DNA from: a virus
Reading direction: 5' to 3' (one strand)
Length of the DNA: 64,000 bases
Virus record (IMG/VR): IMGVR_UViG_3300029305_006397
Made by a program: the position numbers and the translations under genes. How positions within the stretch are numbered: the stretch's first letter is position 1; each line of letters opens with the position of its first letter. This document shows, piece after piece, positions 3,815 to 41,711 of the stretch. The notes under the pieces are model-generated. The model worked only from the letters and a program-made list of their open reading frames with translations. It was not told where the DNA came from and made no database searches.

Positions 3815-3900
<86 letters not shown>

Positions 3901-27582: not shown

Positions 27583-27846
27583 TTATTCTTCTTCGTACCT
27601 CTCTGCCAATTCATCGGCAGCGCAAGCATATACATCATCGGCATCTCTTGCCCAAAGTTCATGATTGATAGCATACAAGAGTTCCTTGCACAGATCGACA
27701 AGCTCAGACTTGCTCAGTTCATGCCCATAATTTGCAAGTGCATCAAACAGGCAATCCGGGCAATCTCTCAGACCTTCAATAATGCTCTGCATCGTCAGGG
27801 TCTTAGAATTTTCCATCTGCATACCTTCCTTCTTTTCTTTTAGCAT
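27583..27846 (-). CDS. hypothetical acidic protein (77-87 aa)
   Basis: Track ORF. GAAGGAAGG SD favors an ATG near 27816. Confidence 0.55.
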   Translation of the reverse strand: MLKEKKEGMQMENSKTLTMQSIIEGLRDCPDCLFDALANYGHELSKSELVDLCKELLYAINHELWARDADDVYACAADELAERYEEE

Positions 27847-27871
27847 ATCGGATACTTTGGATTTTCCGATG

Positions 27872-27908
27872 TAGCATTAAAGAATCAGGAGAGGCTTTCG
27901 CCTCTCCC
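27872..27908 (-). terminator. intrinsic terminator
   Basis: Minus-sense GGAGAGGC-GAAA-GCCTCTCC then TGATTCTTTAAT, about 25 nt after the stop at 27933. Confidence 0.55.
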
Positions 27909-27932
27909 TATCTCCCATCTGCGTTTATGCTG

Positions 27933-28280
27933 TTAGTCACCGCCGACTGCGCCAACCACCAAACAATCGTATTCTTCCGGCAGGTCATAGTCCCAATCAA
28001 GCTGGGCTTCAACGTACAAAACCTTTTCAACGTACAGGATTTCGCCAAACTGACAGAGGAAATCTTTGGCCTGTTCTTCATACCGGGCATCACAGGTTAC
28101 AAATACGCTGTTCGTTCCGGCAAGATTTTCCAGCTTAAAAAGCTCCTCATTGTCGCGCACGTTATTGAAGATCGCAAGGAAATCTCTTGCATACTTGTTC
28201 AGGTCTGCGCTCAGTTCGACCTTAATCTGCACGGCATCCTTCTTCTCCGTATAAAACTTCATCTTCATGTGATTTTCCAT
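27933..28280 (-). CDS. hypothetical protein (115 aa)
   Basis: Track ORF. AAAGAAAGG before the ATG. Lies downstream of hammerhead a. Confidence 0.6.
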   Translation of the reverse strand: MENHMKMKFYTEKKDAVQIKVELSADLNKYARDFLAIFNNVRDNEELFKLENLAGTNSVFVTCDARYEEQAKDFLCQFGEILYVEKVLYVEAQLDWDYDLPEEYDCLVVGAVGGD

Positions 28281-28306
28281 CCTTTCTTTTCTTGCAGGTG
28301 TGGCTT

Positions 28307-28396
28307 CCTACGACACAAGCGGAAGGAAAGATAGGAAGGAAGAAAACCTTCCGCTTGTCATTTCGGCTGGTTGCCGTCCAGCTCTCGTCAGGTAGG
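28307..28396 (-). ncRNA. type-I hammerhead ribozyme (HH-a)
   Basis: Minus-sense CCTAC-CUGACGAG-[GCTGG/CCAGC]-CGAAA-[12-bp stem III]-GUC/GTAGG. All core nucleotides are present and stem I is CCTAC/GTAGG. Predicted cut is between 28312 and 28311. Confidence 0.75.
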
Positions 28397-28594
28397 TGTG
28401 GTTAATTTGAATGATTTGGTAGTCAATGCTGCCAGCTTTTGTTCGCAAGCGGTGTAGCTACCTCTATAAATGGTTTTCCAGTTATAACGGCATCTGCCGC
28501 CAACAGTGTAGAATCGTCTTTCTTTGAGTTCCCATACAGGCTTCAGGTCAAAGCCAATCGTTTCAGAAATTACATATCTTGCTTTGTTAGCCAT
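28388..28594 (-). CDS. hypothetical protein (68 aa)
   Basis: Track ORF. GGAGGC SD. Its UGA stop is the UGA of the hammerhead CUGA core. Confidence 0.6.
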   Translation of the reverse strand: MANKARYVISETIGFDLKPVWELKERRFYTVGGRCRYNWKTIYRGSYTACEQKLAALTTKSFKLTTPT

Positions 28595-28602
28595 GTTGCC
28601 TC

Positions 28603-28794
28603 CTACTTAATCGCAATGCGTTTAGAATTGTTCTCCAAGACAGCTTCAATTTTCCGTTTGACATGCAGCATGTTTTCTTTTACATGATTTGCAAGGGCTT
28701 CCATACCCTCTGTAGGATTTTCCATGCTATCTGCTTCATGCTGCAATGCGTTCATAATCCATCTAAGCTCGTTATGAGTTAAGGTCTGCATCAT
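28603..28794 (-). CDS. hypothetical protein (63 aa)
   Basis: ATGATG follows AAGAGGGTG. The upstream part of the 141-aa track ORF covers ribozyme HH-b and another gene's frame. Confidence 0.55.
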   Translation of the reverse strand: MMQTLTHNELRWIMNALQHEADSMENPTEGMEALANHVKENMLHVKRKIEAVLENNSKRIAIK

Positions 28795-28830
28795 TTGTAG
28801 ACACCCTCTTTCTTTTCTATATGGTGATTT

Positions 28831-28897
28831 TCCACGACACAGCCGGAATTTTCCGACTATGTTTCGACCGGGCATCACCCGGTTCTCGTCAGGTGGA
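28831..28897 (-). ncRNA. type-I hammerhead ribozyme (HH-b)
   Basis: TCCAC-CUGACGAG-[ACCGGG/CCCGGT]-CGAAAC-[10-bp stem III, GGAAAAUUCC apex]-GUC/GTGGA. Cut is between 28836 and 28835. Confidence 0.8.
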
Positions 28898-28900
28898 TTG

Positions 28901-29062
28901 TTACTTGAGTTCCCATTTTTCCATCCACGGCTCTCCTTGCCGATCATACTTATCTGCGTACATTCGATCAAGGGCTTCCTGCGCTTTCTTTTCCGATGAA
29001 TAGATTTCTCTGATTCCTTCGTCACCATAGCAGCCGGACATGATAACGTAAACGTACTTCAT
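28901..29062 (-). CDS. small ORF (53 aa)
   Basis: Not in the track. AGGAGG 5 nt before the ATG. Its TAA stop is 3 nt before HH-b. Confidence 0.45.
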   Translation of the reverse strand: MKYVYVIMSGCYGDEGIREIYSSEKKAQEALDRMYADKYDRQGEPWMEKWELK

Positions 29063-29071
29063 ACATACCTC

Positions 29072-29287
29072 CTAACCATCATTCCATGCGTAATCGTACC
29101 AGAGGGAAATCACATCGTTTTCCGGCTCAAAAGGCGTATCATCAAACGACAGGGCATTCAGACCTTCATCCTTAAGCCGCTGCATTGCCATCGTTTCCAG
29201 CTCCTCGTTGGATTTTCCGACTGCATCTTCGTCGTCAATGTATACCTTATAGAAACGCTTTACCTCAGCCATGATAGCTACTGCCAT
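29072..29287 (-). CDS. hypothetical acidic protein (71 aa)
   Basis: Track ORF. Conserved leader GGAAAGATAGGAGGAAA. Confidence 0.6.
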   Translation of the reverse strand: MAVAIMAEVKRFYKVYIDDEDAVGKSNEELETMAMQRLKDEGLNALSFDDTPFEPENDVISLWYDYAWNDG

Positions 29288-29383
29288 AAGTGTTTCCTCC
29301 TATCTTTCCTTATGCGTTTGGCTTTAGGGGCTTGTGACCTTATGCCTTGCCGCATTAACAGGGCTTATGCCCTGCCACTCTGC

Positions 29384-29569
29384 TTAATCTCGATTGGAAA
29401 GCTCCGTGTGATAGATATGCACACTCTGAAGGCGTCTGCTTCCAAATTTCCGTCGAAATTCCTCTTTCGCATCTTTCATGTTTGCCTTGCTACCGTTTCG
29501 ATGATCGCTTACATACTCAAATTCTCCGTAATCGTGACCATCATCATAAAGCGCAATGTAGTTTTTCAT
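29384..29569 (-). CDS. hypothetical protein (61 aa)
   Basis: Track ORF. AGGAGGC SD. Confidence 0.55.
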   Translation of the reverse strand: MKNYIALYDDGHDYGEFEYVSDHRNGSKANMKDAKEEFRRKFGSRRLQSVHIYHTELSNRD

Positions 29570-29580
29570 GCCGCCTCCTG

Positions 29581-29778
29581 TTAATCCATAGTGTAGTCAT
29601 TGATTCTACAAAATTCCGACCAGTCTCCGCCAAGTCGCCGGATAAGCTCCCTTTCGATCTTGACGCGCTCTTGCGGATAACGCTTGTTCTTCGGGTAGAG
29701 GATTTCCTGCGCAACAATGATTCCATAGGTGCTTACCAAATCTTCATGCGAATAATCCATGTACTTGTTTTTCCGCAT
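29581..29778 (-). CDS. hypothetical protein (65 aa)
   Basis: Track ORF, translationally coupled to its neighbors. Confidence 0.55.
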   Translation of the reverse strand: MRKNKYMDYSHEDLVSTYGIIVAQEILYPKNKRYPQERVKIERELIRRLGGDWSEFCRINDYTMD

Positions 29779-29781
29779 GGT

Positions 29782-30027
29782 TTAACCCTCCATCATGCAG
29801 CCCATTTCAAGCTGTACACGGTGATTGAAATCTTCCATCGCAGCCTTAAGGTCATTCAGGAAGTAATGACCGTGACAATAGGATTTTCCGTTCATACAAA
29901 ACCATGTAATCCACATGATTCCCTGACTTGTTTCAGTTTTTGCCAGAACAACTTCGCCCTCAATGACAGGCTCCGCATGGATAATCTCACAATTTTCCGA
30001 GTAGTTTTTGTTGTAGCGCCTTTCCAT
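29782..30027 (-). CDS. hypothetical protein (81 aa)
   Basis: Track ORF. Conserved leader GGAAAAGATAGGAGGAAA. Confidence 0.6.
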   Translation of the reverse strand: MERRYNKNYSENCEIIHAEPVIEGEVVLAKTETSQGIMWITWFCMNGKSYCHGHYFLNDLKAAMEDFNHRVQLEMGCMMEG

Positions 30028-30082
30028 GTATGTTTCCTCCTATCTTTTCCTTATGGTTTCCATGGATATTTCCATGGGGTTT

Positions 30083-30150
30083 CCCACGACGCTCTCAGGA
30101 TTTTCCATCAAGCGTTTCGGTTGCTAACCGGGCAGCCATCATCAGGTGGG
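30083..30150 (-). ncRNA. type-I hammerhead ribozyme (HH-c)
   Basis: CCCAC-CUGAUGA-U-[GGCUGC..GCAACC]-GAAAC-[stem III with GGAAAAUCC apex]-GUC/GTGGG. The stem II closing pair is noncanonical. Cut is between 30088 and 30087. Confidence 0.65.
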
Positions 30151-30151
30151 G

Positions 30152-30355
30152 TTAAAAAACGAATCCGGCATAAACCATCTTGTTTCCGTCCAGCATCCTC
30201 CATGCGTTAGCATCGTCCCATGCCGTACAACAGTAACGTTTTTCCGACCTGTCATATTCGCCGCGGATATAGACCCGATTTGCAGACTCTTTCAACTTGA
30301 AAAATTCTCCATGCTTCAGGTCTTTCAGCTTGTACATTCCTGCATCTCTTTCCAT
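30152..30355 (-). CDS. hypothetical protein (67 aa)
   Basis: Track ORF. Its stop is 1 nt before HH-c. Confidence 0.55.
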   Translation of the reverse strand: MERDAGMYKLKDLKHGEFFKLKESANRVYIRGEYDRSEKRYCCTAWDDANAWRMLDGNKMVYAGFVF

Positions 30356-30356
30356 G

Positions 30357-30551
30357 TTAGGCTCCCTTCTTAATCCGCTTTACTTCGATATGATCGTAGC
30401 CTTTATCCGGGTGAAGAAAATTCCGAATACCATAGCTTCGTGCTTCCTGCTCATTAGTTGCTTCGATCTTGTGATATTCCAAGGCCATGCCAGATTTTCC
30501 GACACCAATTCGATAGAGATATTTCCTTGCCATTGTGCTTCCTCCGTTCAT
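30357..30551 (-). CDS. hypothetical protein (64 aa)
   Basis: Track ORF. ATGA overlap with the upstream small ORF. Confidence 0.55.
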   Translation of the reverse strand: MNGGSTMARKYLYRIGVGKSGMALEYHKIEATNEQEARSYGIRNFLHPDKGYDHIEVKRIKKGA

Positions 30552-30721
30552 TTACCGATTGCCTCGGCGTAGTATTCGTCGAAATTTCCGAAAACTTCCA
30601 GATACACCATGCCACCATTGCCCCGATAAGGCCGGATATTTTTCATGATGAATCGATATTCCGTGAACATCAATGCAAGCACACAAAGGGCAATACATGC
30701 TCCAATCGCCAGCTTTTTCAT
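30548..30721 (-). CDS. small membrane/secreted protein (57 aa)
   Basis: Not in the track. Conserved leader GATAGGAGGAAAATC plus ATG. MKKLAIGACIALCVLALMF signal-like N-terminus. Confidence 0.45.
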   Translation of the reverse strand: MKKLAIGACIALCVLALMFTEYRFIMKNIRPYRGNGGMVYLEVFGNFDEYYAEAIGK

Positions 30722-30757
30722 GATTTTCCTCCTATCTTTTCCATGTGGTTTTGACTT

Positions 30758-30823
30758 CCCACGACAGGCCAGCTCAAGGCCAGCCTGTTTCGGCTCGTTG
30801 TCAACTCGCCATCGTCAGGTGGG
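30758..30823 (-). ncRNA. type-I hammerhead ribozyme (HH-d)
   Basis: CCCAC-CUGACGA-U-[GGCGAG..CGAGCC]-GAAAC-[9-bp stem III CAGGCUGGC/GCUGGCCUG]-GUC/GTGGG. Cut is between 30763 and 30762. Confidence 0.7.
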
Positions 30824-30828
30824 TATGC

Positions 30829-31290
30829 TTACCATTCCTCCAATTCTTCCTCCAGATCGGCGATTTCTTCCTCCAGATCATCGGCATCCGACTGGTAATT
30901 GCTTCTCCAGATTGCCATTCTCAGGCTTTCGATTTCTTCCTCGTCCAGCTCATTCATTCCGGCAAGCTCACGATTGGAATTGATTTCGTCGATTTGTTCC
31001 TCGACTTCTTCTTCGTAACTTTCCTTGAGTTCTTCCAGCTCGTACTGTTTTTCTTCCAGTTCGGCGCGGATAACTTTCTCGGAACGGATTCCAACCCATT
31101 CATACACGGATTCCGGCTCAAACCAAAGCAGATCATTTAGACCAGTTTCGGTCATTCCATCCGGGTACAAATCCTCCAGAACAGCCTCCAGCTGCGCACA
31201 TTTTCCGGCGTTGCGTACACGATCAAGGGTATCGACAGCTCCAGACCATGCCTCGAAAGTTTCCAAATCAAGCTCGTATGTGATTTTCAT
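30829..31290 (-). CDS. hypothetical very acidic protein (153 aa)
   Basis: Track ORF. SD GGAAGGGG. Confidence 0.65.
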   Translation of the reverse strand: MKITYELDLETFEAWSGAVDTLDRVRNAGKCAQLEAVLEDLYPDGMTETGLNDLLWFEPESVYEWVGIRSEKVIRAELEEKQYELEELKESYEEEVEEQIDEINSNRELAGMNELDEEEIESLRMAIWRSNYQSDADDLEEEIADLEEELEEW

Positions 31291-31397
31291 TGTAAAATTC
31301 CCCTTCCTATCTTTCCAAATGATTGACAGGAAGGGGCAAACTATGATATATTTCTGTATAGGAAGGGCGGAAGGAAATTCCCTCCACCCCCATGCGG

Positions 31398-31481
31398 TTA
31401 GATTTCGTCCGGGTTATCCGTGGCGCGAATAATCCCATCAGACCACATCCAGCCGTATTTAGTCCGATACAGGGCTTTCAT
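31398..31481 (-). CDS. possible micro-ORF (27 aa)
   Basis: AGGAAGGAGGA SD plus ATG directly after the bidirectional terminator. Confidence 0.25.
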   Translation of the reverse strand: MKALYRTKYGWMWSDGIIRATDNPDEI

Positions 31482-31505
31482 GGCGGTTGTCCTCCTTCCT
31501 ATCTT

Positions 31506-31555
31506 TTTATAAAAAGCGGTCTTGTGTTGGTAGCACAAGGCCGTTTTTATCTTTT
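31506..31555. terminator. bidirectional intrinsic terminator
   Basis: 10-bp stem CGGTCTTGTG/CACAAGGCCG (one mismatch), flanked by an A-run on one side and TTTTTATCTTTT on the other. Confidence 0.6.
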
Positions 31556-31766
31556 AAAGCCGTTTTTTCTACGATACGGCAAAACGCTTGACCCATGCTA
31601 TATGGGAATGAATCGGGGTTCAAGGGATTGCCCCGGTCGCCTCCAGCCGTGTTCTTACATGCCGCTGGACACAGGTAGCCTGCATAATCATCTCATTCTC
31701 CGGCTACAGAGTTTTGCGCGGTTTCGATAGACGCACATTTATTGGCGGTTGCTATCGGGAATGGTT

Positions 31767-31828
31767 AACCCAGACCAGCCCATGTGGGCGTGGTTTCGTC
31801 GCAATTTTCAGCGACTCGTCAGTGGGTT
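31767..31828 (-). ncRNA. type-I hammerhead ribozyme (HH-e)
   Basis: AACCCA-CUGACGAG-[UCGC/GCGA]-CGAAAC-[stem III]-GUC/TGGGTT. The UGA of the core is the stop codon of 31819..32016. Cut is between 31773 and 31772. Confidence 0.8.
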
Positions 31829-32016
31829 TCAGGGTATTCCATTGCTATGGCTCTGACGGCTTCAATATCCGTCAACATTCCTCTTTCATATACGCGCAAA
31901 ATATTTTCTATGCGTGTTTTTCTTAATTCTTTGATAGACGTTAACATTAACGTATTTTCTGCATCTGTCTGAAGCATATCTTGCGCAAACTCATGCACAT
32001 AGCGTTTTCTTCTCAT
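31819..32016 (-). CDS. hypothetical protein (65 aa)
   Basis: Track ORF. SD GAAGGGAAGG. Its stop is embedded in HH-e. Confidence 0.6.
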   Translation of the reverse strand: MRRKRYVHEFAQDMLQTDAENTLMLTSIKELRKTRIENILRVYERGMLTDIEAVRAIAMEYPETH

Positions 32017-32038
32017 GTTTATACCTTCCCTTCTCTTT

Positions 32039-32107
32039 CCATACCCACGCCCCGGCAGGGCGTGACGCTCACGGCTTAAATGGCTTTTTATAGTCGCCGT
32101 GACGACT
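32039..32107 (-). ncRNA. pistol ribozyme (Pistol-f)
   Basis: AGUCG-UCACGG-CGACU hairpin. The loop is complementary to the downstream CCGUGA (pseudoknot). Then GCG, P3 UCACGCCC/GGGCGUGG, G/U, AUGG pairing with CCAU. Same spacing as the env25 pistol as I recall it. Cut is between 32044 and 32043. Confidence 0.75.
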
Positions 32108-32418
32108 CAGACAATTATGCAGCGTTTGAACGGATTTTCGCAGGGGTCGCAACCGAAACCGAAATTTTCTCCGTATATATCGATATACTGAAGTCCAGCG
32201 AATTTGCCGTTCTGAATGGTTTTTAACTCCATTGTAGCGCGGCGCATAGCCTGTTTTGCCTGTTTAATGGTTACGTCGTCGATATTGTAGAATCTGTTTA
32301 GCTTGTTTTGAATTTTATTCAAGAAATTCATTGCAAGGTCATTTGTAACATTCTTTTTATCGGACTCCATGAAACAGTCAAACCCGTATGCACGAAGATA
32401 AAAACCCTGTTTTTTCAT
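32107..32418 (-). CDS. hypothetical protein (103 aa)
   Basis: Track ORF. SD GGGAGGG. The last base of its TGA stop (A, 32107) is the first base of pistol P1. Confidence 0.6.
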   Translation of the reverse strand: MKKQGFYLRAYGFDCFMESDKKNVTNDLAMNFLNKIQNKLNRFYNIDDVTIKQAKQAMRRATMELKTIQNGKFAGLQYIDIYGENFGFGCDPCENPFKRCIIV

Positions 32419-32441
32419 TGTATAACCCTCCCTATCTATTT

Positions 32442-32507
32442 TTGAACCCGCCCCAAACGGGGCGACGCTTTGGGCCTAATCAACTATTTAAAGTCGCCCA
32501 AACGACT
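32442..32507 (-). ncRNA. pistol ribozyme (Pistol-g)
   Basis: AGUCG-UUUGGG-CGACU-UUAAAUAGUUGAUUAGG-CCCAAA-GCG-UCGCCCC-GUUU-GGGGCGG-G/U-UCAA. The linker UUAAAUAGUUG is identical to the env25 pistol as I recall it. The pseudoknot and P2 covary with Pistol-f. Cut is between 32447 and 32446. Confidence 0.8.
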
Positions 32508-32763
32508 AAACGCGCATTACATTGTCAAGATAAATGCGCATTGCACCCTTACGAATATATGCCCGACCTGCCGTCGAATAGTGGACTTTATGACGATGAA
32601 AACCCACATATCCTTCAGGGTTAACCCATGCCGCAATATAATCGCATTCGAATTTATCGCCGTCGTCGGGTTCCCAAAGTGCAACGCCGAAACAGTTGGA
32701 AAAATGGCAAACGCCAACCGGGGCAATATTAGAATAACGCTTGTAAAGTGCTACATTTTTCAT
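32506..32763 (-). CDS. hypothetical protein (85 aa)
   Basis: Track ORF. SD GAGGGAAGG. Its TAG stop overlaps pistol P1. Confidence 0.6.
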   Translation of the reverse strand: MKNVALYKRYSNIAPVGVCHFSNCFGVALWEPDDGDKFECDYIAAWVNPEGYVGFHRHKVHYSTAGRAYIRKGAMRIYLDNVMRV

Positions 32764-32797
32764 TGTGTTTTACCTTCCCTCTTTTTTTTAGGTTATT

Positions 32798-32852
32798 CAC
32801 CCGACGCCCGGCAGGGCGTTTCGTCTTAATTTTCAAAGACTCTTCAGGGGCG
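32798..32852 (-). ncRNA. type-I hammerhead ribozyme (HH-h)
   Basis: CGCCC-CUGAAGAG-[UC..GA]-CGAAAC-[GCCC-UGCC-GGGC]-GUC/GGGTG. Cut is between 32803 and 32802. Confidence 0.8.
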
Positions 32853-32855
32853 TTA

Positions 32856-33176
32856 TTATCTCAAGTTGTCGTTATATGCAATATCCCTGTTTTTGATTGC
32901 AATTTCGATTCGCTTTTTGCTAACGTCGCCGCCGAAAATGTGACGGGCGTATTCGCGCAAAAACTCATAGAGATATTTTGCGGTTGTATTGGAGTAACAC
33001 CAATTCCGACCCAAAGTCAACGCCGCCGCGCCCTGCGCGTCATAATCAACGATTGCAATAACGCTGTCATAAGACTGGAAAATAACAGCATTATTGGAGT
33101 GAATGATAAACTGGTTTGCAACGGGGCGACCACTTCGGGGGGATACCATGTTCCTAACACTTGCATATTTCATCAT
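32856..33176 (-). CDS. hypothetical protein (106 aa), first gene of the ribozyme-punctuated operon
   Basis: Track ORF. SD GGAAGGTG. The 18-nt motif lies about 25 nt upstream. Confidence 0.6.
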   Translation of the reverse strand: MMKYASVRNMVSPRSGRPVANQFIIHSNNAVIFQSYDSVIAIVDYDAQGAAALTLGRNWCYSNTTAKYLYEFLREYARHIFGGDVSKKRIEIAIKNRDIAYNDNLR

Positions 33177-33203
33177 GTTTTACACCTTCCTATTCTTTTC
33201 TTG

Positions 33204-33221
33204 TTTGCAAGTAATGTTTAT
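33204..33221 (-). promoter_or_regulatory. conserved 18-nt motif copy E (ATAAACATTACTTGCAAA)
   Basis: Lies upstream of the first gene of the leftward operon. Confidence 0.5.
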
Positions 33222-33664
33222 TACTATGCATAAACCCGACTTTCGACGGGCTTTAGTCGCCTGTTATAATCTCGTTTGAATGTCAAGCCCTAAGCAGCTT
33301 GCAGGGACTTTCGGCGTATGCGGTACTTGTTTGCATTCTGCCGGATTTGTGATTCTTTCTCGATTCTAACAAGCGTCTAAAGCCTATTGAGTAGACTTTA
33401 GTTAGAAAAGATAGAAAAGATAAAGGTTTGAGGGCTTTTAATGAGGCTGTAAAAACAGCGTCAAGACTTAGGATTATACGCGCCCTTATTAGGGGATTTT
33501 TCGACGGCCTGCACCTTTGCGGTATAGGTTTTTAATTAACCATTGCAGCCCCGGACTTGCGACCATTCGCCCTGCGACCTTTGCCGCTTTTTTCGCCTTT
33601 TTGAGACGGGGTTCAATCGTGCGCGTAGTATCCTTTGCGCCCTTGAATTTATTCAATTTTCAAG

Positions 33665-33693
33665 TTGCCTTTTGCGTACAAACGTGGTATAAT
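33665..33693 (+). promoter_or_regulatory. sigma70-like promoter with extended -10 (TTGCCT-17-TGgTATAAT)
   Basis: Read directly. The -10 is embedded in the palindrome CGTGGTATAATAACCACG. A GC-rich untranslated tract follows. Confidence 0.45.
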
Positions 33694-33786
33694 AACCACG
33701 TTCGGCACGGCCTCGGCTTCCCTCTCAACCTTGCAGGGCTTGCGTCCTCTCGGGGTTCGTGGTTCGGCCTCGGGCTTGTGTCGTTC

Positions 33787-33814
33787 GGGTTCCGGTTCCG
33801 GGGTTCCGGTTCCG
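33787..33814. repeat. perfect tandem duplication of 14-mer GGGTTCCGGTTCCG
   Basis: Two exact copies: 33787-33800 and 33801-33814. Confidence 0.8.
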
Positions 33815-33844
33815 TTGCCGTCCTGACGTGTATTATGTTACACC

Positions 33845-33858
33845 ATATTGCGCAATAC
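33845..33858. promoter_or_regulatory. palindromic operator-like site ATATTGCGCAATAC
   Basis: Repeated at 33903-33916, upstream of the RHH-like gene. Confidence 0.45.
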
Positions 33859-33902
33859 GTCAACCCGTATTTTTAACCAAAAATATCAATTCGTATTTGT
33901 GT

Positions 33903-33916
33903 ATATTGCACAATAC
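33903..33916. promoter_or_regulatory. palindromic operator-like site ATATTGCACAATAC
   Basis: Second copy, 15 nt before the ATG at 33931. Confidence 0.45.
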
Positions 33917-33930
33917 ATTATAGGATTATT

Positions 33931-34149
33931 ATGTACGATAAAGATAAAGCGATAAAAAGACAAAACGATTTTAATAAATCGAATTATGATAGATTAAACA
34001 CGACTATACCGAAGGGACGCAAGGCCGATATAGTTGCATATTGCGATAGTATTGGAACCACGCCAAACGGCTTAATTAATGAATTGTTGCGGTTTGAATT
34101 GGGGTTTACACCTGAACAATGGAAGGAACGGGCGACGGCTGAAGAATAG
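33931..34149 (+). CDS. small RHH/Arc-like DNA-binding protein (72 aa)
   Basis: Track ORF. Paralog of 13282..13488 (NYDRLNTTIPKGRKADIVAYC...NGLINELL..ELG..PEQW). Confidence 0.55.
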   Translation: MYDKDKAIKRQNDFNKSNYDRLNTTIPKGRKADIVAYCDSIGTTPNGLINELLRFELGFTPEQWKERATAEE

Positions 34150-34254
34150 TAATACTGTATTTTTTGTTTAATGTTGCTATACTTTATAGCTAACCGTTTA
34201 CGGTTAATTATATGCGGTTAATTAACCGTGTTTGAAAATTGGGGCGAATTTTAG

Positions 34255-34278
34255 CGACGGCGCAAACCGTCGTTTTTT
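34255..34278 (+). terminator. intrinsic terminator
   Basis: CGACGG-CGCAAA-CCGTCG followed by TTTTTT. Confidence 0.55.
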
Positions 34279-34933
34279 GTTGTGCGCTGTTGGGCGTTTG
34301 GGGCTGTTTGCAAGGCCAGGGCGACTGTTACCGGGGGCGGCGGTTGCCGTGGGTTTGCTTGATTTTTGCGGCGGCGATAGCCCCCGGATTTATTCGACCA
34401 AAAAAGCGAAAAAATTAGCTAATATCGCATTTTAGGCGACAGCCCCGGCCCCTAGGGGTATTTTACACTTTTTTAACATTTTCGCGCGATCCGCCGTCTG
34501 GTGTCTGGTATATCTATGACATATTGATTTTTGAACCGCATTCCGATCCTAAAAATGCTGCAAGATCGCAATTCAAAATCCACTTTGATTTAATCGACGG
34601 TATACTTCAACGGTAGCAGCTTTTACTATTTTCAAAAAGCTATTGAAACTCAGTGTCTTTTTAGGTCAATTTAAATCACCCTCAAGCCTGGACTTTCATG
34701 ATTTCTACCTATAATACCTCTCCTCTTTTACCTGTCGCAAAATAAATAAGACGAATCAAAGTCAATCTGATTCATTGTAAAAACTATTGAGTTTCAGCAC
34801 TTATTTCAATAAATACAACCAGTCTTTTCGAATACAAATACTAAAATTTTCGACGGTAAACCGTTGTTCACTTTTCGTGTTATTTTGAAAAGCTCTGAAA
34901 TCTAATAGTTTTAAAGAATATTGTCATTTGATC

Positions 34934-34962
34934 TTGACAACTAACCTTATCTGTGTTAAAAT
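34934..34962 (+). promoter_or_regulatory. sigma70-type promoter TTGACA-17 nt-TAAAAT
   Basis: Consensus -35, 17-nt spacer, near-consensus -10. Points toward the rightward block. Confidence 0.55.
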
Positions 34963-34988
34963 CATTATAGTTATGTTGTCCATTGTTT

Positions 34989-35026
34989 TTTGCACTTAAT
35001 TTTTATCAATAAACATTATGTGCAAA
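34989..35026. promoter_or_regulatory. inverted pair of the 18-nt motif (TTTGCACTTAATTTTTAT / ATAAACATTATGTGCAAA)
   Basis: Two copies in opposite orientation separated by 2 nt form a 38-bp near-palindrome about 30 nt downstream of the -10. Confidence 0.55.
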
Positions 35027-35246
35027 TTATATTGCGTTGCTTATGTTTATGCGCAGCAACTAACATCTCCATGGAGCGCGGAAGCGCGACCGTAACCCCG
35101 GAGGGCGTAAGCCCGTAGGTCGTAGCCCCCCTTCCCCAGAGGGAAGGTATGAAGCGCAGCGTAAGCAAGCGACCCCTGCTGCGCCCCACGCGCGGCAGTA
35201 TACTATAATCTTTCTAAGTTAATCTATATAAGTATTGAAGTGAAAA

Positions 35247-35268
35247 TTTCCACGCAAATCTGTGGAAA
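35247..35268. promoter_or_regulatory. inverted repeat TTTCCAC-N8-GTGGAAA (operator/iteron-like, DnaA-box-like half sites)
   Basis: Read directly. Repeated at 35290-35310. Confidence 0.45.
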
Positions 35269-35289
35269 AAAACGCACCCTCTATAAATA

Positions 35290-35310
35290 TTTCCACAAAA
35301 TCGCGTGGAT
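35290..35310. promoter_or_regulatory. inverted repeat TTTCCAC-N8-GTGGA(T)
   Basis: Second copy, 36 nt before the TTG start of 35346. Confidence 0.45.
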
Positions 35311-35345
35311 TTTTTATCAGAGGCTGAAAGGAGGGAAACATGTGA

Positions 35346-36197
35346 TTGGATTTTCAAGATAAAGACAAAACTGAATATCCTGAAACACGAAATAAAGAGC
35401 TAAGTTATTATCAACAACGTTTTTTGAAACTGCCAAGAATGATAATCGAAAATTTCAACATCGGAGATCAGCGTCTAGCTGTATATACTTATTTGGCAAT
35501 ACGATGTGGACTTGATTATAAAGTTGACACAGATTTAAAAACGATCATTCTTTCTTTCGGTAAAAAACCCGATAGACATCCAGGTCAAATAAATGATAAA
35601 ACTGAAAACTCCTTATCAAAACTGATCGAGCTTGGGTATATAAAAAAGTTAAGCCAGGATTGCGATTTAAATGTCAATCAAACCTTCTTTTTCGATCAGG
35701 AATGGATAGATAACAATTGCCCTCAATTCACGATTGCTTATATAGACGAAATCGAACGAATACTGAGCAGTGACATTTCAAATAAAGACATCACCCTTTT
35801 AGTGTTCGCTTATTTAAGATTAAAGATACACAGGCGTCCAAATTCTATGCCAAAGAAATATTGGGGAAATCAGGAAGGCTATAAGGCCGATAATCCAGAG
35901 GTTTATAACTGTTATTATCGAGACATTGCTAAAGAGCTTGGACTAACAGTTCATGTAGTTCAAAAGGCGGTTGATGCTTTAATTGAGATTGGCTTAATAT
36001 ATGCAGAAGAACTCCCCAGACATTTGGTGAAAAGCAGCAATGGACAAGAAAGATGGATGACTGGACAAACACTTTTTTGCAATACATACAAACGCGATGC
36101 AAAATATGAGTTTGTCAAAGGTAAACAGTATTATGAGAAAGAGATCAAAAATAAAAAGAAAATAATAGAACAAGCGAAAGGAGGTAACTCCATATGA
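35346..36197 (+). CDS. putative winged-helix DNA-binding protein (replication initiator or transcription regulator), 283 aa
   Basis: Track ORF with a TTG start 10 nt after AAAGGAGGG. Two HTH-like segments. Function is inferred from position and composition only. Confidence 0.55.
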   Translation: MDFQDKDKTEYPETRNKELSYYQQRFLKLPRMIIENFNIGDQRLAVYTYLAIRCGLDYKVDTDLKTIILSFGKKPDRHPGQINDKTENSLSKLIELGYIKKLSQDCDLNVNQTFFFDQEWIDNNCPQFTIAYIDEIERILSSDISNKDITLLVFAYLRLKIHRRPNSMPKKYWGNQEGYKADNPEVYNCYYRDIAKELGLTVHVVQKAVDALIEIGLIYAEELPRHLVKSSNGQERWMTGQTLFCNTYKRDAKYEFVKGKQYYEKEIKNKKKIIEQAKGGNSI

Positions 36198-36397: not shown

Positions 36398-36456
36398 TCT
36401 AAAATTCTCAGACTAAGTAAGGATGAATGAAATGGGTAAATAAAGAAGGTGTTTGT

Positions 36457-39342
36457 ATGCCTCTGGATAAGCAAATTCAAATTATCTCGACTGATACTGC
36501 GGGATTCTACAGCAACCATGAGGCAAGGTTGCATTTGAAAAATCATAAACTTCGAAGCGAAAGAAAAATACTTAAAAAAGGCGGAGTCGTTAAAAGAGCA
36601 AATGGAGACAAACGGATCGTTATTGGTTTAGATGAAATTGAAAATAAGCTTGCCGTATTTGGTATTTACTCTACTGACATAGAAGACATCATAAACGAAC
36701 GCTTTAATTTTGACGACTATACCTTAGAGGATATAGGCGAAATTAAGCATTTGATTTCCGATTACAACTTGAAAAAGAAGCTAATTGAAATCAAGAACGC
36801 TGCAATCAGCGAAAGCAAAGAGCAGCTTTTGAAGCTCTTGGCGAATAAAGTCCAGGAGAACGTAAGCTCAAATGGAAGGCATCATACGAGGTACTTGAGA
36901 GAGAATAGCGTTGTAAACAGTAATATCATTTCGGTATTTGATTCGTCCTTTACGAGAATGATCGGAGCAAAGGAAAATGAATTATGCGAAGATTTTATGG
37001 TGATTCAGGTATTTTACTTTGATGTATTGAAAGATATTCTGTATCATGGGTATACATACAAGGGCGAGAAATATATTTATTTTACTTCATCTGCCGGACA
37101 GATCAGGACAAAAAAAGCGGTTTTTGTAAAAGAAAAAATCTGGAACGAGCATGAGCGTACAATTATGTGTGGATTAACGCTTGACGAGATAAATCGCAAG
37201 GGAGGTAACAATCCCAATAAGCATCTGGCTTATATGGCTTTGAGCAATTCAGCCACTGATTTGTGGCCTGAGTTCGATATTGATAAAGCCATTGTAATCG
37301 ATGATTTTGAAACCAATGTATTTGGAACCTACGATCTCGTGGATGATGCGGACTATACTATTACCAGGGTTTCAGATTTTGTTCCTATATCTCATACAGA
37401 TGGCGCTGGTATGATACTCCCCTGTGCCTTTGGAAAGACCCAGAAAAATAAAATGGTTCGATTACCGTGGATTAAAGGATTGCTTGGCGTTTTTGATTTT
37501 AGGAAGTTTATAATTGATCAAGGAGCTTCGCCAGTAATTCGAGATATTTACGGAAAAGAACACAATTTGATTTCCGAAGATATCCAGGTAGTTTTCACCA
37601 AATCTCAGCATAAAATGTGGAAATACTATAACTCCTGGAACGAATATAAAGCGGCTTATAAGAAATATGGTTGTACTGCCGGATATACCAATGAAGAAGA
37701 GTTGAATATTCCTAATGCGTCCATCAACTATCAAATGCTTCAAACACTGACGGATATTACTCCGGAAGAGATTTTAAAAATTGCAAATAAATCTATTGGC
37801 TGTTTGGAAAATATGACGAGCAGTATAGATAACATTCGAGCAGCATTTGGTGGAGCAAATTATAATCAGGATAAGAGTAGTTTGAACAAAGCATTAGATT
37901 TATACCCTGATCTATTAAACGATGATTGGATTAAGAGAACCCTCCGGGCAATTCGCGATAGCTTGATCAAGGATTATAAAGCTGGAAAATTGAGAGTGCG
38001 AGGCAAATACACATTCTTACTCCCTGATTTTTATGCTGCATGCCAATATTGGTTCCTTGGGATCGAGGAACCGGAAGGGCTTTTGCAAGATGGAGAGGTA
38101 TTTTGTTGGTTATTTCCTGAAAGCGAAAAATTAGATTGCTTGCGAAGTCCTCATTTATATCGCGAACATCCTATTCGCAGGAATGTCGCATGGATAGGTT
38201 ATAAAGAAAGACAAGCCAAGATCAGAGAATGGTTTGGTACAAACGCAGTTTATACGAGCTGCCATGATTTGATCAGCAAGATTTTGCAGTTTGATGTTGA
38301 CGGAGATAAGAGTCTGGTGGTGGCAGATAAAACTATTATTGACGTTGCAGAGCGTAATATGCAAGGAATTGTTCCTTTGTATTATAACATGCGTAAAGCT
38401 TCTCCAGTGCAATTGAATAACGAAACGATCTATAACGGGTTGAACGCAGCATTTGTTGGCGGTAATATTGGAATATACAGCAATAATATTTCAAAGATTT
38501 GGAATAGTGAAGTTTTCATAAGCGGCAGCAATGAAGAACGTCGGGAAGCATTGGATATTATTAAGTTGCTTTGTATGGAAAATAATTTCGTTATCGATTA
38601 TGCCAAAACTCTGTATAAACCAGAACGCCCTAAGCACATTCACGAAAGAATCCTGGCCTTTACAAGAAATAAGCTTCCTCATTTTTTCGTTTATGCTAAA
38701 GACAAGCTGGACGATCAAGTGGAAAAACGCAATGGCAGTTTCGTAAATCAGTTGGATGATATAATACCTGTCCCCAGGTTCCATTTCAAAAAACTTGGTT
38801 TAGAAAAAGTTGAACATAGGTTTTTAATGCATGATTCAAATTGCACTGCAAGAGTAGCTTTTACAGATTCGGGTAAAATCATTTCAGAAGAGACAGACCC
38901 TTTAATTTTGGCGTACCATGCATTAAATAAAAAATATTTTTTGGACTTGGGAGAAGTATTACAGGTGAACTATTGCAATACTGAGTTGATATCAATATAC
39001 GCTAAAAATGGTGCTCTTGCCAAGAAGCAGCAAATGATCGAAGAAACGAAAAGCATTCTATCTGAATTTGGATATAATCAAAATCAAATTGTAGATATTT
39101 TAGTCGATTATGTGTATGGGAAAAATAGGTCGAATGCAAAAGCACTGCTATGGCTTTGCTATGGCGATTCGATTTATAAGAATATGCTACAATATTTAAT
39201 TCCGGATTTTAAGACGATACAGTGCGTAGATTGCGATGCATTATTTTCTGTTTCTGCTAAAAATCAATATGCATGCCGTTGTCCAGAATGTGCTAAAAAG
39301 CAGAAAAAGGCCGAAAGGCAATTAAAAAAGATGCTGTCTTAA
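36457..39342 (+). CDS. putative single-chain two-barrel RNA polymerase (YonO / RdRP-like), 961 aa
   Basis: CLRSPHLYREHPI ... 40 aa ... FDVDGDKSLVV (DVDGD at 38293-38307) parallels NRAPTLH ... NADFDGD of beta-prime and DxDGD of RdRP/YonO. C-terminal CxxC...CxxC zinc ribbon. ATG follows GAAGGTG (track start 36427). Confidence 0.5.
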   Translation: MPLDKQIQIISTDTAGFYSNHEARLHLKNHKLRSERKILKKGGVVKRANGDKRIVIGLDEIENKLAVFGIYSTDIEDIINERFNFDDYTLEDIGEIKHLISDYNLKKKLIEIKNAAISESKEQLLKLLANKVQENVSSNGRHHTRYLRENSVVNSNIISVFDSSFTRMIGAKENELCEDFMVIQVFYFDVLKDILYHGYTYKGEKYIYFTSSAGQIRTKKAVFVKEKIWNEHERTIMCGLTLDEINRKGGNNPNKHLAYMALSNSATDLWPEFDIDKAIVIDDFETNVFGTYDLVDDADYTITRVSDFVPISHTDGAGMILPCAFGKTQKNKMVRLPWIKGLLGVFDFRKFIIDQGASPVIRDIYGKEHNLISEDIQVVFTKSQHKMWKYYNSWNEYKAAYKKYGCTAGYTNEEELNIPNASINYQMLQTLTDITPEEILKIANKSIGCLENMTSSIDNIRAAFGGANYNQDKSSLNKALDLYPDLLNDDWIKRTLRAIRDSLIKDYKAGKLRVRGKYTFLLPDFYAACQYWFLGIEEPEGLLQDGEVFCWLFPESEKLDCLRSPHLYREHPIRRNVAWIGYKERQAKIREWFGTNAVYTSCHDLISKILQFDVDGDKSLVVADKTIIDVAERNMQGIVPLYYNMRKASPVQLNNETIYNGLNAAFVGGNIGIYSNNISKIWNSEVFISGSNEERREALDIIKLLCMENNFVIDYAKTLYKPERPKHIHERILAFTRNKLPHFFVYAKDKLDDQVEKRNGSFVNQLDDIIPVPRFHFKKLGLEKVEHRFLMHDSNCTARVAFTDSGKIISEETDPLILAYHALNKKYFLDLGEVLQVNYCNTELISIYAKNGALAKKQQMIEETKSILSEFGYNQNQIVDILVDYVYGKNRSNAKALLWLCYGDSIYKNMLQYLIPDFKTIQCVDCDALFSVSAKNQYACRCPECAKKQKKAERQLKKMLS

Positions 39343-41378: not shown

Positions 41379-41711
41379 TTATGTTATCTATTTCCCAACA
41401 TACTGTCATGCGTGGGTGGAATAAGAAGAGACGGGCGTTTTCGGTCGGCATAAACCGAAGTTTGGCATTTGAGGTCAAATGAGTTTGATGAATGCAATCC
41501 CGTGCTGCTATGCGGTATTTGCAGGAGAACAACAGGGGTTTGCGTATAACCACAAGGCAGCTAGGTACAATCCGAAAGAAAAACGGTTATAAAGGGCGTC
41601 CCGCCACCTATATCCCAAGTGTGGAACGATAAAGCAGGTGTTTCGCTGCCTATAAATGCGAAATTTAATCAGCTCCGTGTTGGATATTTTGACATGCGGA
41701 GCATTTTATAT

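Follow-up and report, generated by a model that had tools for sequence, protein, structure and literature searches.

Pistol ribozymes form a class that was reportedly described by Weinberg et al. in 2015, and we know of no ligand for them. In this they differ from the glmS ribozyme of Bacillus subtilis, which is located in the 5′ leader of a Firmicutes mRNA and requires a metabolite cofactor; its cut leaves a 5′-OH on the coding part, and RNase J1 can then attack the product, resulting in decay of the mRNA. RiboJ-type synthetic insulators are engineered, hammerhead-derived elements placed between a promoter or upstream RNA and a ribosome-binding site (RBS), and a ribozyme of this type just 5′ of the RBS removes the upstream RNA and provides a constant short leader downstream. 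Pistols are well understood in their chemistry and structure but not in their biological role, and this also holds for the remaining small self-cleaving ribozymes found in bacteria and phages, whose role is regarded as open in the literature (PMC6765202). The pistol class is built from three stems, P1, P2 and P3 (Harris et al. 2015, PMC4604425), and its occurrence near phage genes in Firmicutes has been known since 2015 (PMC4604425). A pseudoknot connects the P1 loop with the P2-P3 junction, the scissile bond, usually G-U, sits in a junction of strictly two nucleotides between P3 and P2, and 10 nucleotides are highly conserved. Members cleave themselves site-specifically through internal phosphoester transfer, which yields 2′,3′-cyclic phosphate and 5′-OH ends. 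Structural work on the env25 pistol assigned active-site roles to G33, G40, G42 and G53-U54 (PMC7027511). A rate constant above 10 per min was predicted for a pistol under physiological conditions (PMC4604425), and a value of 4.1 per min was reported for env25 (PMC7027511). Clustered hammerheads flanking prophage genes were found to cleave during in vitro transcription as well as in vivo, and were proposed to cut long transcripts of the phage into mRNAs of gene length (Perreault et al. 2011, PMC3088659).

The pistol-g and pistol-f elements and their genes

The window, i.e., the whole 64-kb stretch of DNA that was analysed, belongs to an SPβ-like phage of Firmicutes. Two elements, referred to as pistol-g and pistol-f, are situated in a co-directional minus-strand block of small genes with no function assigned.

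32442..32507, minus strand: pistol-g, a complete pistol ribozyme of 66 nt (Rfam RF02679, 68.4 bits). P1, 32507-32503/32496-32492; pseudoknot, 32502-32497 with 32474-32469; P2, 32483-32480 with 32445-32442; equivalent of G40-C41-G42, 32468-32466; P3, 32465-32459/32454-32448; predicted scissile bond, G32447/U32446.
32039..32107, minus strand: pistol-f, a complete pistol ribozyme of 69 nt (Rfam RF02679, 67.9 bits). P1, 32107-32103/32096-32092; pseudoknot, 32102-32097 with 32074-32069; P2, 32083-32080 with 32042-32039; GCG, 32068-32066; P3, 32065-32058/32052-32045; predicted scissile bond, G32044/U32043.

Re-reading of the minus-strand sequence returned both segmentations exactly as they were written in the original prediction, namely AGUCG-UUUGGG-CGACU-UUAAAUAGUUGAUUAGG-CCCAAA-GCG-UCGCCCC-GUUU-GGGGCGG-GU-UCAA for pistol-g and AGUCG-UCACGG-CGACU-AUAAAAAGCCAUUUAAG-CCGUGA-GCG-UCACGCCC-UGCCG-GGGCGUGG-GU-AUGG for pistol-f. 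P1 is AGUCG/CGACU in both copies. The pseudoknot comprises six of six possible pairs in each element (UUUGGG/CCCAAA in pistol-g, UCACGG/CCGUGA in pistol-f), three of which differ between the copies, and P2 differs at all four pairs with the pairing kept (UUGA/UCAA versus CCAU/AUGG). P3 consists of seven pairs in pistol-g and eight in pistol-f, closed by U:G in each case. The spacings as far as the GCG are the same (5+6+5+8+4+5+6+3 nt), and the predicted scissile bond is carried by a two-nt P3-P2 junction (G32447-U32446 and G32044-U32043). The compensatory changes that had been claimed for the pseudoknot, P2 and P3 with its U:G closing pair are all present in the two copies, as are the identical spacings, the GCG and the G-U dinucleotide.

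The comparison with the pistol covariance model, which had been suggested as a check, did not place either element below the gathering score of 34.5. Both covered the full RF02679 model (positions 1-68 of 68; cmscan, Rfam 15) with about twice that score, i.e., 68.4 bits (E 2.5e-10) for pistol-g and 67.9 bits (E 3.2e-10) for pistol-f. As these E-values were computed for the whole 64-kb window, both strands and 4227 families, the matches lie far beyond chance. The equivalents of G33, G40, G42 and G53-U54 were all found in both pistols by alignment to env25 and the Rfam consensus, together with the linker AAA and the U:G at the base of P3. With the upper-case positions of the Rfam consensus taken as the measure of conservation, all non-helical conserved positions were matched, with the sole exception of A17, which is replaced by U in pistol-g; env25 likewise has U at position 17. 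Pistol-g and pistol-f are almost certainly genuine pistols, and their sequences indicate that they very probably cleave. Neither departs from the class definition, and the two elements only add two members to a known class with hundreds of known examples.

The env25 pistol, which has been crystallised (PDB 5K7C), carries the linker UUAAAUAGUUG, identical to that found here, and its construct reads CGUGG-UUAGGG-CCACG-UUAAAUAGUUGCUUAAG-CCCUAA-GCG-... (PMC6101554). Overall identity between pistol-g and env25 is 69%, and the first 11 linker bases of the construct recur in pistol-g; the likeness to env25 noted in the original prediction is correct. The architecture is the same (5-bp P1, 6-nt loop, 6-bp pseudoknot to the P2-P3 junction and AAA linker), as are the 4-bp P2, the GCG, the U:G-closed P3 and the 2-nt G-U junction, and the equivalents of G33, G40 and G42 carry the same numbers. 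The differences are confined to the helix sequences, the length of P3 and position 32, which is G in pistol-g but A in pistol-f and env25; all of these vary within the class. The habitat, phage genes of Firmicutes, is also common to the class and the window (PMC4604425).

The genes and leaders around the two pistols are as follows.

32506..32763, minus strand: 85-aa open reading frame (ORF) upstream of pistol-g, a member of phage family phrog_17101, which has no assigned function.
32419..32446, minus strand: 28-nt leader of the 103-aa cistron after a cut at pistol-g, UUCAAAAAUAGAUAGGGAGGGUUAUACA, with the Shine-Dalgarno sequence GGGAGGG.
32107..32418, minus strand: 103-aa ORF between the two pistols, with no Pfam or PHROG family match.
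32017..32043, minus strand: 27-nt leader of the 65-aa cistron after a cut at pistol-f, UAUGGAAAGAGAAGGGAAGGUAUAAAC, with the Shine-Dalgarno sequence GGGAAGG.
31819..32016, minus strand: 65-aa ORF downstream of pistol-f.

Each pistol occupies one intercistronic gap, from the preceding stop codon to approximately 10 nt before the next Shine-Dalgarno sequence. The stop codon of the 85-aa ORF (UAG, 32508-32506) overlaps nucleotides 1-2 of pistol-g, and that of the 103-aa ORF (UGA, 32109-32107) overlaps nucleotide 1 of pistol-f. In the minimum-free-energy fold computed for its gap, the 28-nt leader behind pistol-g remains unpaired. The 103-aa protein has eight homologue clusters, and the exact protein was present on 21 metagenome contigs. 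The genes of the block share one orientation and are closely packed, with gaps too short to accommodate promoters, from which we infer that they are co-transcribed; a consensus promoter scan gave no clear guide, with 23 promoter-like sites versus 16 expected.

Two other functions of the elements were considered and rejected. Masking of the Shine-Dalgarno sequence by the uncleaved ribozyme is contradicted by the minimum-free-energy folds of both gaps, computed without pseudoknots, in which this sequence is unpaired. P3 does not qualify as an intrinsic terminator, as neither P3 is followed by a U-tract.

Ribozymes at neighbouring and homologous junctions

Nine ribozymes were located within 4.55 kb of one co-directional block (six hammerhead candidates, the two pistols and one twister-P5), and the rest of this block in the 64-kb window contained none. 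The arrangement of stop codon, ribozyme and leader described for the pistols was also seen for the nearby twister and hammerheads. Two of the hammerhead candidates lie next to the genes described above.

32798..32852, minus strand: HH-1, a type I hammerhead candidate found by descriptor scan in the junction before the 85-aa gene; predicted cut, 32803/32802, with a 39-nt leader.
31767..31828, minus strand: HH-2, a type I hammerhead candidate in the junction after the 65-aa gene; predicted cut, 31773/31772.

HH-1 contains the CUGAAGA, GAAA and GUC core and three stems, and scored below the Rfam threshold (RF00163, 18.1 bits versus gathering 34; RAGATH-1-hammerhead, 25.8 bits); its orthologues were present in the loci L011, L140 and L146. 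HH-2 reached 24.0 bits with RF00163 (gathering 34), and HH-3 to HH-6 gave no match to this model even at E<=10. A strict hammerhead descriptor returned two elements and a relaxed version (CUGANGA...GAAA...UH core, three stems, stem I open) returned five, all on the minus strand, compared with 0.03 expected per shuffled window; the sixth hammerhead was read by eye. Compensatory stems were seen in hammerhead orthologues; e.g., stem II differs by compensatory changes between HH-2 and its L011 orthologue (GUCGC/GCGAC versus GUCUU/AAGAC), in which stem III is also different. The cores of HH-3 and HH-4 are variants with one additional U inserted between A9 and G10.1, and all six elements were accordingly filed as candidates rather than members. 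In HH-2 and HH-6, the UGA within the CUGA box doubles as a stop codon, which in HH-2 is that of the 65-aa ORF (31821-31819). The one terminator-like hairpin (31539-31521) is located only after HH-2.

The labels "f" and "g" in the original prediction implied further pistols, but Rfam (E<=1) and a 17-base pistol pattern identified only three in the window, one in addition to pistol-g and pistol-f.

3617-3686, minus strand: third pistol, found by Rfam and the 17-base pistol pattern.

The 186 nt downstream of this third pistol folded no better than shuffled sequences (z = −1.06), giving no sign of a hidden RNA beside it, and ARAGORN found no tRNA directly abutting it.

A wider survey of 77 distinct pistols, 74 of which came from viral contigs, revealed covariation in all four helices. 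Paired cells accounted for 97.9% of the total, versus 34-46% with the partners slid, and the pseudoknot, at which the search pattern imposed no pairing, was paired in 97.6%. Placement was surveyed for the 75 distinct parsed pistols whose flanking sequence was long enough, 71 of them from viral contigs. A same-strand ORF ended <=150 nt upstream in 62 of the 75, and in 41 of these 62 its stop lay between −2 and +8 nt relative to the start of the ribozyme; the last base of the stop codon was ribozyme nucleotide 1 in 15 of the 62, and many surveyed pistols were situated 10-150 nt away from the stop. A Shine-Dalgarno sequence with a start codon followed within <=200 nt downstream in 50/75 pistols. 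The coding strand was the pistol strand in 56/63 cases upstream and 44/63 cases downstream.

Relatives of the locus were obtained by a protein-cluster search and exact-protein look-ups, the orthologous pistol copies being derived from independent metagenome contigs; megablast of positions 28000-36000 against 50,697 GenBank phage records gave no match, and searching IMG/VR with peptide patterns from the 103-aa and the 85-aa protein gave no confirmed relative. The pistol-f orthologues of L011 and L146 showed a compensatory change of the pseudoknot from UCACGG/CCGUGA to UUGCGG/CCGCAA. In the pistol-g orthologue of L146, a U:A pair of P2 was replaced by C:G and a G:C pair of the pseudoknot by G:U. 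A metagenome variant of pistol-f (L002; 62.9 bits) has an A-to-C change which breaks one P3 pair.

The occupancy of homologous junctions varied among these loci. The junction 3′ of the 85-aa family holds a pistol in the window and L146, a hammerhead in L140 and L142, and nothing in L144 and L141. The junction 5′ of this family holds a hammerhead in the window, L140 and L146, and a pistol in L142. Downstream of the 103-aa family, a pistol is present in the window, L011 and L146, a hammerhead-like element in L016-18 and a truncated pistol remnant of about 20 nt in L012. At a homologous junction, L013 and L019 have a terminator instead. Compared with L011, the window is longer by one unit, made up of the 85-aa gene together with pistol-g and its leader (32755-32422), the breakpoints of which fall in similar RBS-ATG stretches. 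This unit raised the idea that a pistol forms a fixed module with its upstream gene, which was rejected, as 85-aa homologues precede a hammerhead (L140, L142) or nothing (L144, L141) and the pistol of L142 lies before the 85-aa gene. The remnant in L012 and the empty junctions of L144 and L141 indicate that the ribozymes are dispensable over short evolutionary distances, which also fits weak selection or passenger status. No statement of a replacement between pistol and hammerhead at one junction was found in the papers that were read.

Proposed role and alternative explanations

The role that we favour, with somewhat better than even confidence, is the separation or insulation of cistrons by co-transcriptional cutting of a polycistronic phage mRNA at the two pistols. 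As the RNA polymerase leaves the gap, the RNA of approximately 66-69 nt would fold (P1, pseudoknot, P3, P2), and the G40-equivalent guanine would activate the 2′-OH of the G before the scissile G-U, resulting in a chain break. The published rate constants of pistols are fast enough for action on a nascent transcript. The upstream cistron would retain the compact ribozyme body with a 2′,3′-cyclic phosphate at its 3′ end, and the 4-bp P2 helix would release the downstream RNA, which would start with a 5′-OH and an A-rich, unstructured leader of 27-28 nt with a strong RBS. Cuts at both pistols would free the 103-aa cistron as a 403-nt RNA (32446 to 32044). Together, the two pistols, the six hammerhead candidates and the twister would turn one long transcript into single-gene mRNAs, each with a stability and translation no longer tied to its neighbours. 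The 5′-OH product may also be a target of RNase J1, as known for glmS, so that cleavage could destabilise the downstream cistron instead of protecting it.

The arrangement is similar to that of RiboJ-type insulators, but it is natural, and its benefit here is one that we infer. The succession of a stop codon, a ribozyme and an A-rich leader of 27-40 nt carrying a strong RBS suggests an insulation rule for synthetic Firmicutes operons. The mutual replacement of pistols and hammerheads at homologous junctions suggests that the selected thing is the cut itself and not the pistol fold. The natural swaps, in which a hammerhead, a decayed pistol or nothing takes the place of the pistol, make this idea directly testable, and the locus offers a compact natural test bed, with two pistols around one small gene and nine ribozymes at consecutive junctions. 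The clustered hammerheads of Perreault et al. 2011 (PMC3088659) resemble the present locus, as several ribozymes are placed there between single phage genes or short blocks and the same function, processing of long transcripts, was proposed. Unlike those clusters, the locus mixes three classes, with nine elements in 4.55 kb, and its relatives carry a pistol or a hammerhead at the same junction.

Active ribozymes could also bring the phage little or no benefit and represent junction passengers shuffled with small gene cassettes, tolerated since cutting between cistrons does little harm. The patchy occupancy of the junctions (the truncated remnant in L012, none in L144 and L141, a terminator in L013 and L019) and the extra unit relative to L011 (32755-32422), with its breakpoints in similar RBS-ATG stretches, fit such a history. 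Nevertheless, we consider it unlikely, because compensatory changes keep the helices between close orthologues, which needs purifying selection on the fold. Mere passengers would also sit uneasily with the very regular placement and orientation of 75 distinct pistols, with the crowding of nine ribozymes from three unrelated classes into 4.55 kb on a single strand, with junctions that often hold another class after losing one, and with the pistol having no fixed neighbouring gene. Another explanation, to which we assign a low probability, is that cleavage reports whether the upstream cistron is translated and thereby couples or uncouples neighbour genes. With the upstream stop codon overlapping P1, ribosomes that terminate there would open up both this stem and the pseudoknot; the stop overlaps ribozyme nucleotides 1-2 in pistol-g and 1 in pistol-f, 15/62 surveyed stops end on nucleotide 1 and 41/62 lie within −2 to +8 nt, and the UGA of the CUGA box serves as the stop in HH-2 and HH-6. 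Simple genome compaction, however, equally predicts that ribozymes abut stop codons, and many pistols are 10-150 nt off the stop. At rates of 4 to >10 per min the cut may precede the first ribosome, and the sequence gives no hint of an alternative, translation-dependent fold.

Cleavage might be followed by rejoining, in which a phage RtcB ligase circularises or splices the excised single-gene RNAs, e.g., the 403-nt RNA. A candidate enzyme is encoded in the same window.

4538-5713, minus strand: RtcB ligase (phrog_1075, E 3e-127).

Its substrates are the ends left by ribozymes (2′,3′-cyclic phosphate and 5′-OH), the cuts bound the 103-aa cistron on both sides, and, for clustered hammerheads, the formation of circular or spliced products had already been suggested as possible (PMC3088659). 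If true, this would be a natural counterpart of the engineered circular-RNA systems that combine ribozymes with RtcB, and would supply the phage with exonuclease-resistant mRNAs. We regard it as very improbable: RtcB adjoins a 12-gene tRNA array, which makes tRNA repair the ordinary explanation for its presence, and such products were sought by Perreault et al. and none were detected (PMC3088659). Furthermore, the RNA ends are not brought together, as UUCAA, the 5′ end produced by pistol-g, has no complementarity to the freed P2 strand of pistol-f (CCAU), and no docking helix is shared between neighbouring ribozymes. Docking of each other's products for ligation by neighbouring ribozymes was also rejected, since neither the P2 strands nor the pseudoknot strands of pistol-g are complementary to those of pistol-f. 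It is hardly credible that the two elements are chance or decayed look-alikes which have lost cleavage, a reading to which the L002 variant of pistol-f with its broken P3 pair (62.9 bits) lends some colour. Both elements are full-length, with E ~1e-10, all active-site residues and compensatory changes in paralogues as well as orthologues, and a truly decayed copy looks different, as illustrated by the remnant in L012.

Identity and active site of the two pistol elements

Comparison of the whole window with 4227 Rfam families returned matches to the full Pistol model (RF02679) for both elements flanking the 103-aa ORF, pistol-g (68.4 bits, E = 2.5e-10) and pistol-f (67.9 bits, E = 3.2e-10). A score below gathering had been named in the original prediction as grounds for refuting it; both scores lay well above the gathering score of 34.5.

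Pistol elements and the small gene upstream of pistol-g
32763-32506, minus strand: 85-aa ORF, stop codon UAG, its last two bases being pistol-g nucleotides 1-2
32507-32442, minus strand: pistol-g, 66 nt, RF02679
32107-32039, minus strand: pistol-f, 69 nt, RF02679

The two predicted sequences were present letter for letter on the minus strand, and the compensatory changes claimed for them were confirmed between the hairpin loop and downstream hexamer (UUUGGG/CCCAAA in pistol-g versus UCACGG/CCGUGA in pistol-f), in P2 (UUGA/UCAA versus CCAU/AUGG) and in P3 (UCGCCCC/GGGGCGG versus UCACGCCC/GGGCGUGG, with a U:G closing pair in both). The spacing, said to be equal, was indeed the same in both as far as the GCG triplet. 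The stated resemblance to the crystallised pistol env25 also held: in the construct printed as CGUGGUUAGGGCCACGUUAAAUAGUUGCUUAAGCCCUAAGCGUUGAUA...AUCAGGUGCAA (PMC6101554), the linker starts UUAAAUAGUUG, as in pistol-g. In the alignment, pistol-g and env25 were equal in length as far as GCG, so that env25 numbering carries over directly. Structural and atomic-mutagenesis work on env25 identified G33 as the site of an N7-bound Mg2+ and G40 as the general base with a transition-state contact, the active site further including G42, ribose 32 and the scissile G53-U54 (PMC7027511). Equivalents of all these residues were found in both elements; at position 32, where the ribose matters and the base does not, pistol-g has G and pistol-f has A. 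Pistol cleavage is an internal phosphoester transfer leaving 2',3'-cyclic phosphate and 5'-OH ends, with rate constants of 4 to >10 per min (PMC4604425, PMC7027511).

The plus-strand half of the window carries terminase and portal genes, the terminase sharing 46% identity with those of SPβ-like Bacillus phages. Together with a gene for an RtcB ligase and two arrays of tRNA genes, these mark the window as a large tailed phage of Firmicutes, and pistols were described from phages of Firmicutes (PMC4604425). The original prediction was correct in observation and interpretation, and the two elements are new members of a well-defined, structurally solved class in its typical habitat.

A mixed ribozyme array and its turnover in related loci

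The pistols belong to a minus-strand block of small genes; it and the plus-strand genes diverge at around 33200-35300. Between the end of pistol-g (32442) and the start codon ATG of the 103-aa ORF (32418) stands GGGAGGG; the A of that ORF's UGA stop is pistol-f nucleotide 1, and between the end of pistol-f (32039) and the 65-aa ORF's ATG (32016) stands GGGAAGG. From these positions, cleavage at the predicted G-U bonds would leave leaders of 28 nt (pistol-g) and 27 nt (pistol-f) on the downstream cistrons, and the ribozyme body would stay on the 3' end of the upstream cistron.

BLAST against related loci on other metagenome contigs revealed a repeated motif in other gene gaps that reads as a type I hammerhead. 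A hammerhead descriptor gave five matches in the window, all on the minus strand at 28307-32852, versus 0.03 expected per shuffled window; the sixth candidate was read by eye.

Further ribozymes and ribozyme candidates of the block, all in gene gaps
32852-32798, minus strand: HH-1, type I hammerhead candidate
31828-31767, minus strand: HH-2, type I hammerhead candidate
30823-30758, minus strand: HH-3, type I hammerhead candidate
30150-30083, minus strand: HH-4, type I hammerhead candidate
29384-29325, minus strand: twister-P5, Rfam 50.9 bits (gathering 37.6)
28897-28831, minus strand: HH-5, type I hammerhead candidate
28396-28307, minus strand: HH-6, type I hammerhead candidate

All six have three stems and a complete CUGANGA/GAAA/UH core. 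They are called candidates because none reached the threshold of the Rfam hammerhead models (best 24.0 and 18.1 bits versus 34; four unreported at E<=10). Support for them comes from orthologues in L011, L140, L142 and L146, whose stems show compensatory changes. The stop of a 61-aa ORF overlaps the first base of twister-P5, which is followed by AGGAGG and the ATG of a 71-aa ORF. In transcript order the block reads HH-1, 85-aa ORF, pistol-g, 103-aa ORF, pistol-f, 65-aa ORF, HH-2, ..., HH-3, ..., HH-4, ..., twister, ..., HH-5, ..., HH-6, that is, nine ribozymes (candidates counted) within 4.55 kb, every one in a gene gap. Eight of the nine are followed by a leader rich in A and by a strong Shine-Dalgarno sequence; after the exception, HH-2, comes a long non-coding stretch.

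HH-3 and HH-4 have an additional U between A9 and the opening pair of stem II (CUGAnGA-U-GG...CC-GAAA), a variant kept in relatives (L140 2693-2755 and 3113-3199; L142 2370-2431), which may be the reason the Rfam models miss such elements. In HH-2 and HH-6, the UGA of the CUGA box (31819-31821 and 28388-28390, respectively, minus strand) is the upstream ORF's stop codon, one triplet being in use by both protein and ribozyme core. The predicted fold of a 110-nt gene gap at 27823-27932 (minus strand) is a three-way junction (-33.8 kcal/mol), in which a GGAAAAUC loop resembles loops in several nearby hammerhead stems; Rfam gave no match for this gap, it contains neither a hammerhead nor a pistol core, and its size and place suit a further ribozyme.

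Occupancy of homologous junctions
3' of the 103-aa family: pistol in the window, L011 and L146; hammerhead-like with one extra core base in L016-L018; pistol remnant in L012; terminator in L013 and L019
3' of the 85-aa family: pistol in the window and L146; hammerhead in L140 and L142; nothing in L144 and L141
5' of the 85-aa family: pistol in L142; hammerhead in the window, L140 and L146

The 49-nt gap after the 103-aa homologue in L012 (5319-5367) starts AGUCGUUGCAGCGGCUAUA, which corresponds to P1 and its loop (a pistol's initial ~20 nt), and the remaining part is deleted; it is a decayed pistol at the junction that holds pistol-f in the window. Relative to L011 (4998-5008), the window contains an extra unit of 85-aa gene, pistol-g and leader (32422-32755, minus strand), whose breakpoints lie within similar RBS-ATGAA stretches, which suggests that cassettes are exchanged through recombination at ribosome-binding sites. 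This turnover indicates that the ribozymes are not bound to particular genes, and the swapping of unrelated folds at homologous junctions points to the cut itself as the property that would be selected. In L013 (5360-5571) and L019 (2560-2760), the terminator is followed by arrays of the near-palindrome GGTATATTATAC(C), which resemble operator sites.

Covariation and gene layout across the class

The 103-aa protein has exact copies on 21 metagenome contigs and homologues at 53-85% identity, that of L011 at 85%. In the pistol-f orthologues of L011 and L146, the pseudoknot reads UUGCGG/CCGCAA versus UCACGG/CCGUGA, with two pairs fully compensated and the remainder nearly unchanged; in the pistol-g orthologue of L146, a P2 pair is C:G in place of U:A, and one pair of the pseudoknot is G:U in place of G:C. 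IMG/VR was searched with a 17-base pattern whose sole fixed positions were two P1 pairs and conserved bases that are unpaired, and at least 120 stretches matched. Among the 149 matches listed across all the sequence analysed, the pseudoknot formed six of six pairs in 131 and five of six in 17, the pattern carrying no requirement for pseudoknot pairing. In 77 distinct cores among the matches listed, the four helices were 97.9% paired, versus 34-46% with partners slid by 1-3 columns, and double changes occurred at 17 of 20 helix pairs; pairing of P2 and P3 in these figures was partly imposed by parsing, that of the pseudoknot was not.

Layout was surveyed in the 75 distinct pistols with enough flank among the matches listed (71 from viral contigs). 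Within this set, 62 had an ORF of 40 or more codons on their own strand that ended <=150 nt upstream, the stop codon lying at -2 to +8 nt from the first ribozyme base in 41 of the 62 and its last base being the first ribozyme base in 15. A Shine-Dalgarno sequence and start codon followed within 200 nt in 50 of the 75, with leaders after predicted cleavage mostly of 23-51 nt. Again among the matches listed, the longer open frame was on the pistol strand upstream in 56 of 63 and downstream in 44 of 63. Phage pistols are thus typically found at the 3' end of a co-oriented gene, usually with another gene after it.

Predicted transcript processing and the tRNA arrays

Class membership, positions, orientation, predicted scissile bonds, leaders, ribozyme density and swaps were established here. 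We propose that the block would be transcribed as long RNAs, which the ribozymes would cut into single-gene mRNAs, each with a short leader of standard form and structure at its 3' end, and that the stability and translation of neighbours would be uncoupled as a result. In a host with RNase J1, the cut might either stabilise or destabilise the RNA downstream of it. Hammerheads clustered in prophages cleave in vivo and while native fragments of ~2 kb are being transcribed, and cutting into single-gene mRNAs was already proposed there (PMC3088659), as here for the pistol block; a 2019 review described a transcript-processing role as unproven (PMC6765202).

The patchy occupancy of junctions would also fit pistols that are passenger elements, but the compensatory changes and regular placement do not, and we consider this reading unlikely. 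The overlapped stop codon could let pistols sense translation; we consider this quite improbable, as the abutment may be mere compaction, the simpler explanation. The phage RtcB might rejoin or circularise the cut RNAs, whose ends match its substrates, yet the RtcB gene adjoins a tRNA array, the docking strands of neighbouring ribozymes lack complementarity, and such products had been looked for among hammerhead clusters and not found (PMC3088659); we consider this reading, though intriguing, very improbable.

A 971-aa ORF (36427-39342, plus strand; phrog_8308, E = 4e-231), whose homologue in L011 (1-1345) has a weak Pfam match to PF05183 (RdRP), may, given the SPβ-like terminase, be a YonO-type single-subunit phage RNA polymerase; if so, the ribozyme block may be read from promoters that are not sigma-70-like. 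What deserves to be kept is the entire locus, an array in which pistol, hammerhead and twister ribozymes are mixed from one gene junction to the next. With the natural swaps seen in relatives, it gives experiments a clean way to ask what such ribozymes do for phages.

Elements in and beside the tRNA arrays
839-1000, minus strand: RAGATH-36 RNA, 73.2 bits (gathering 70)
3617-3686, minus strand: third pistol, 61.6 bits
4538-5713, minus strand: RtcB RNA ligase, phrog_1075, E = 3e-127
41483-41590, plus strand: drum RNA, 62.1 bits (gathering 43)

The RtcB gene lies directly upstream of a tRNA array, and RtcB joins 2',3'-cyclic phosphate and 5'-OH, the ends expected from all nine ribozymes of the block. 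The third pistol sits within the array, with tRNA-Leu (3815-3900) and tRNA-Met (3359-3435) on either side and not protein genes; the 186 nt downstream of it showed no significant structure (z = -1.06). RAGATH-36 and drum are structured RNAs, each embedded in one of the two arrays. At 3125-3210 (minus strand), ARAGORN called a tRNA to which it assigned no identity, with a two-base 'anticodon' (ca); the element scored 46.9 bits with the Rfam tRNA model and is possibly a tRNA whose anticodon loop is unusual.
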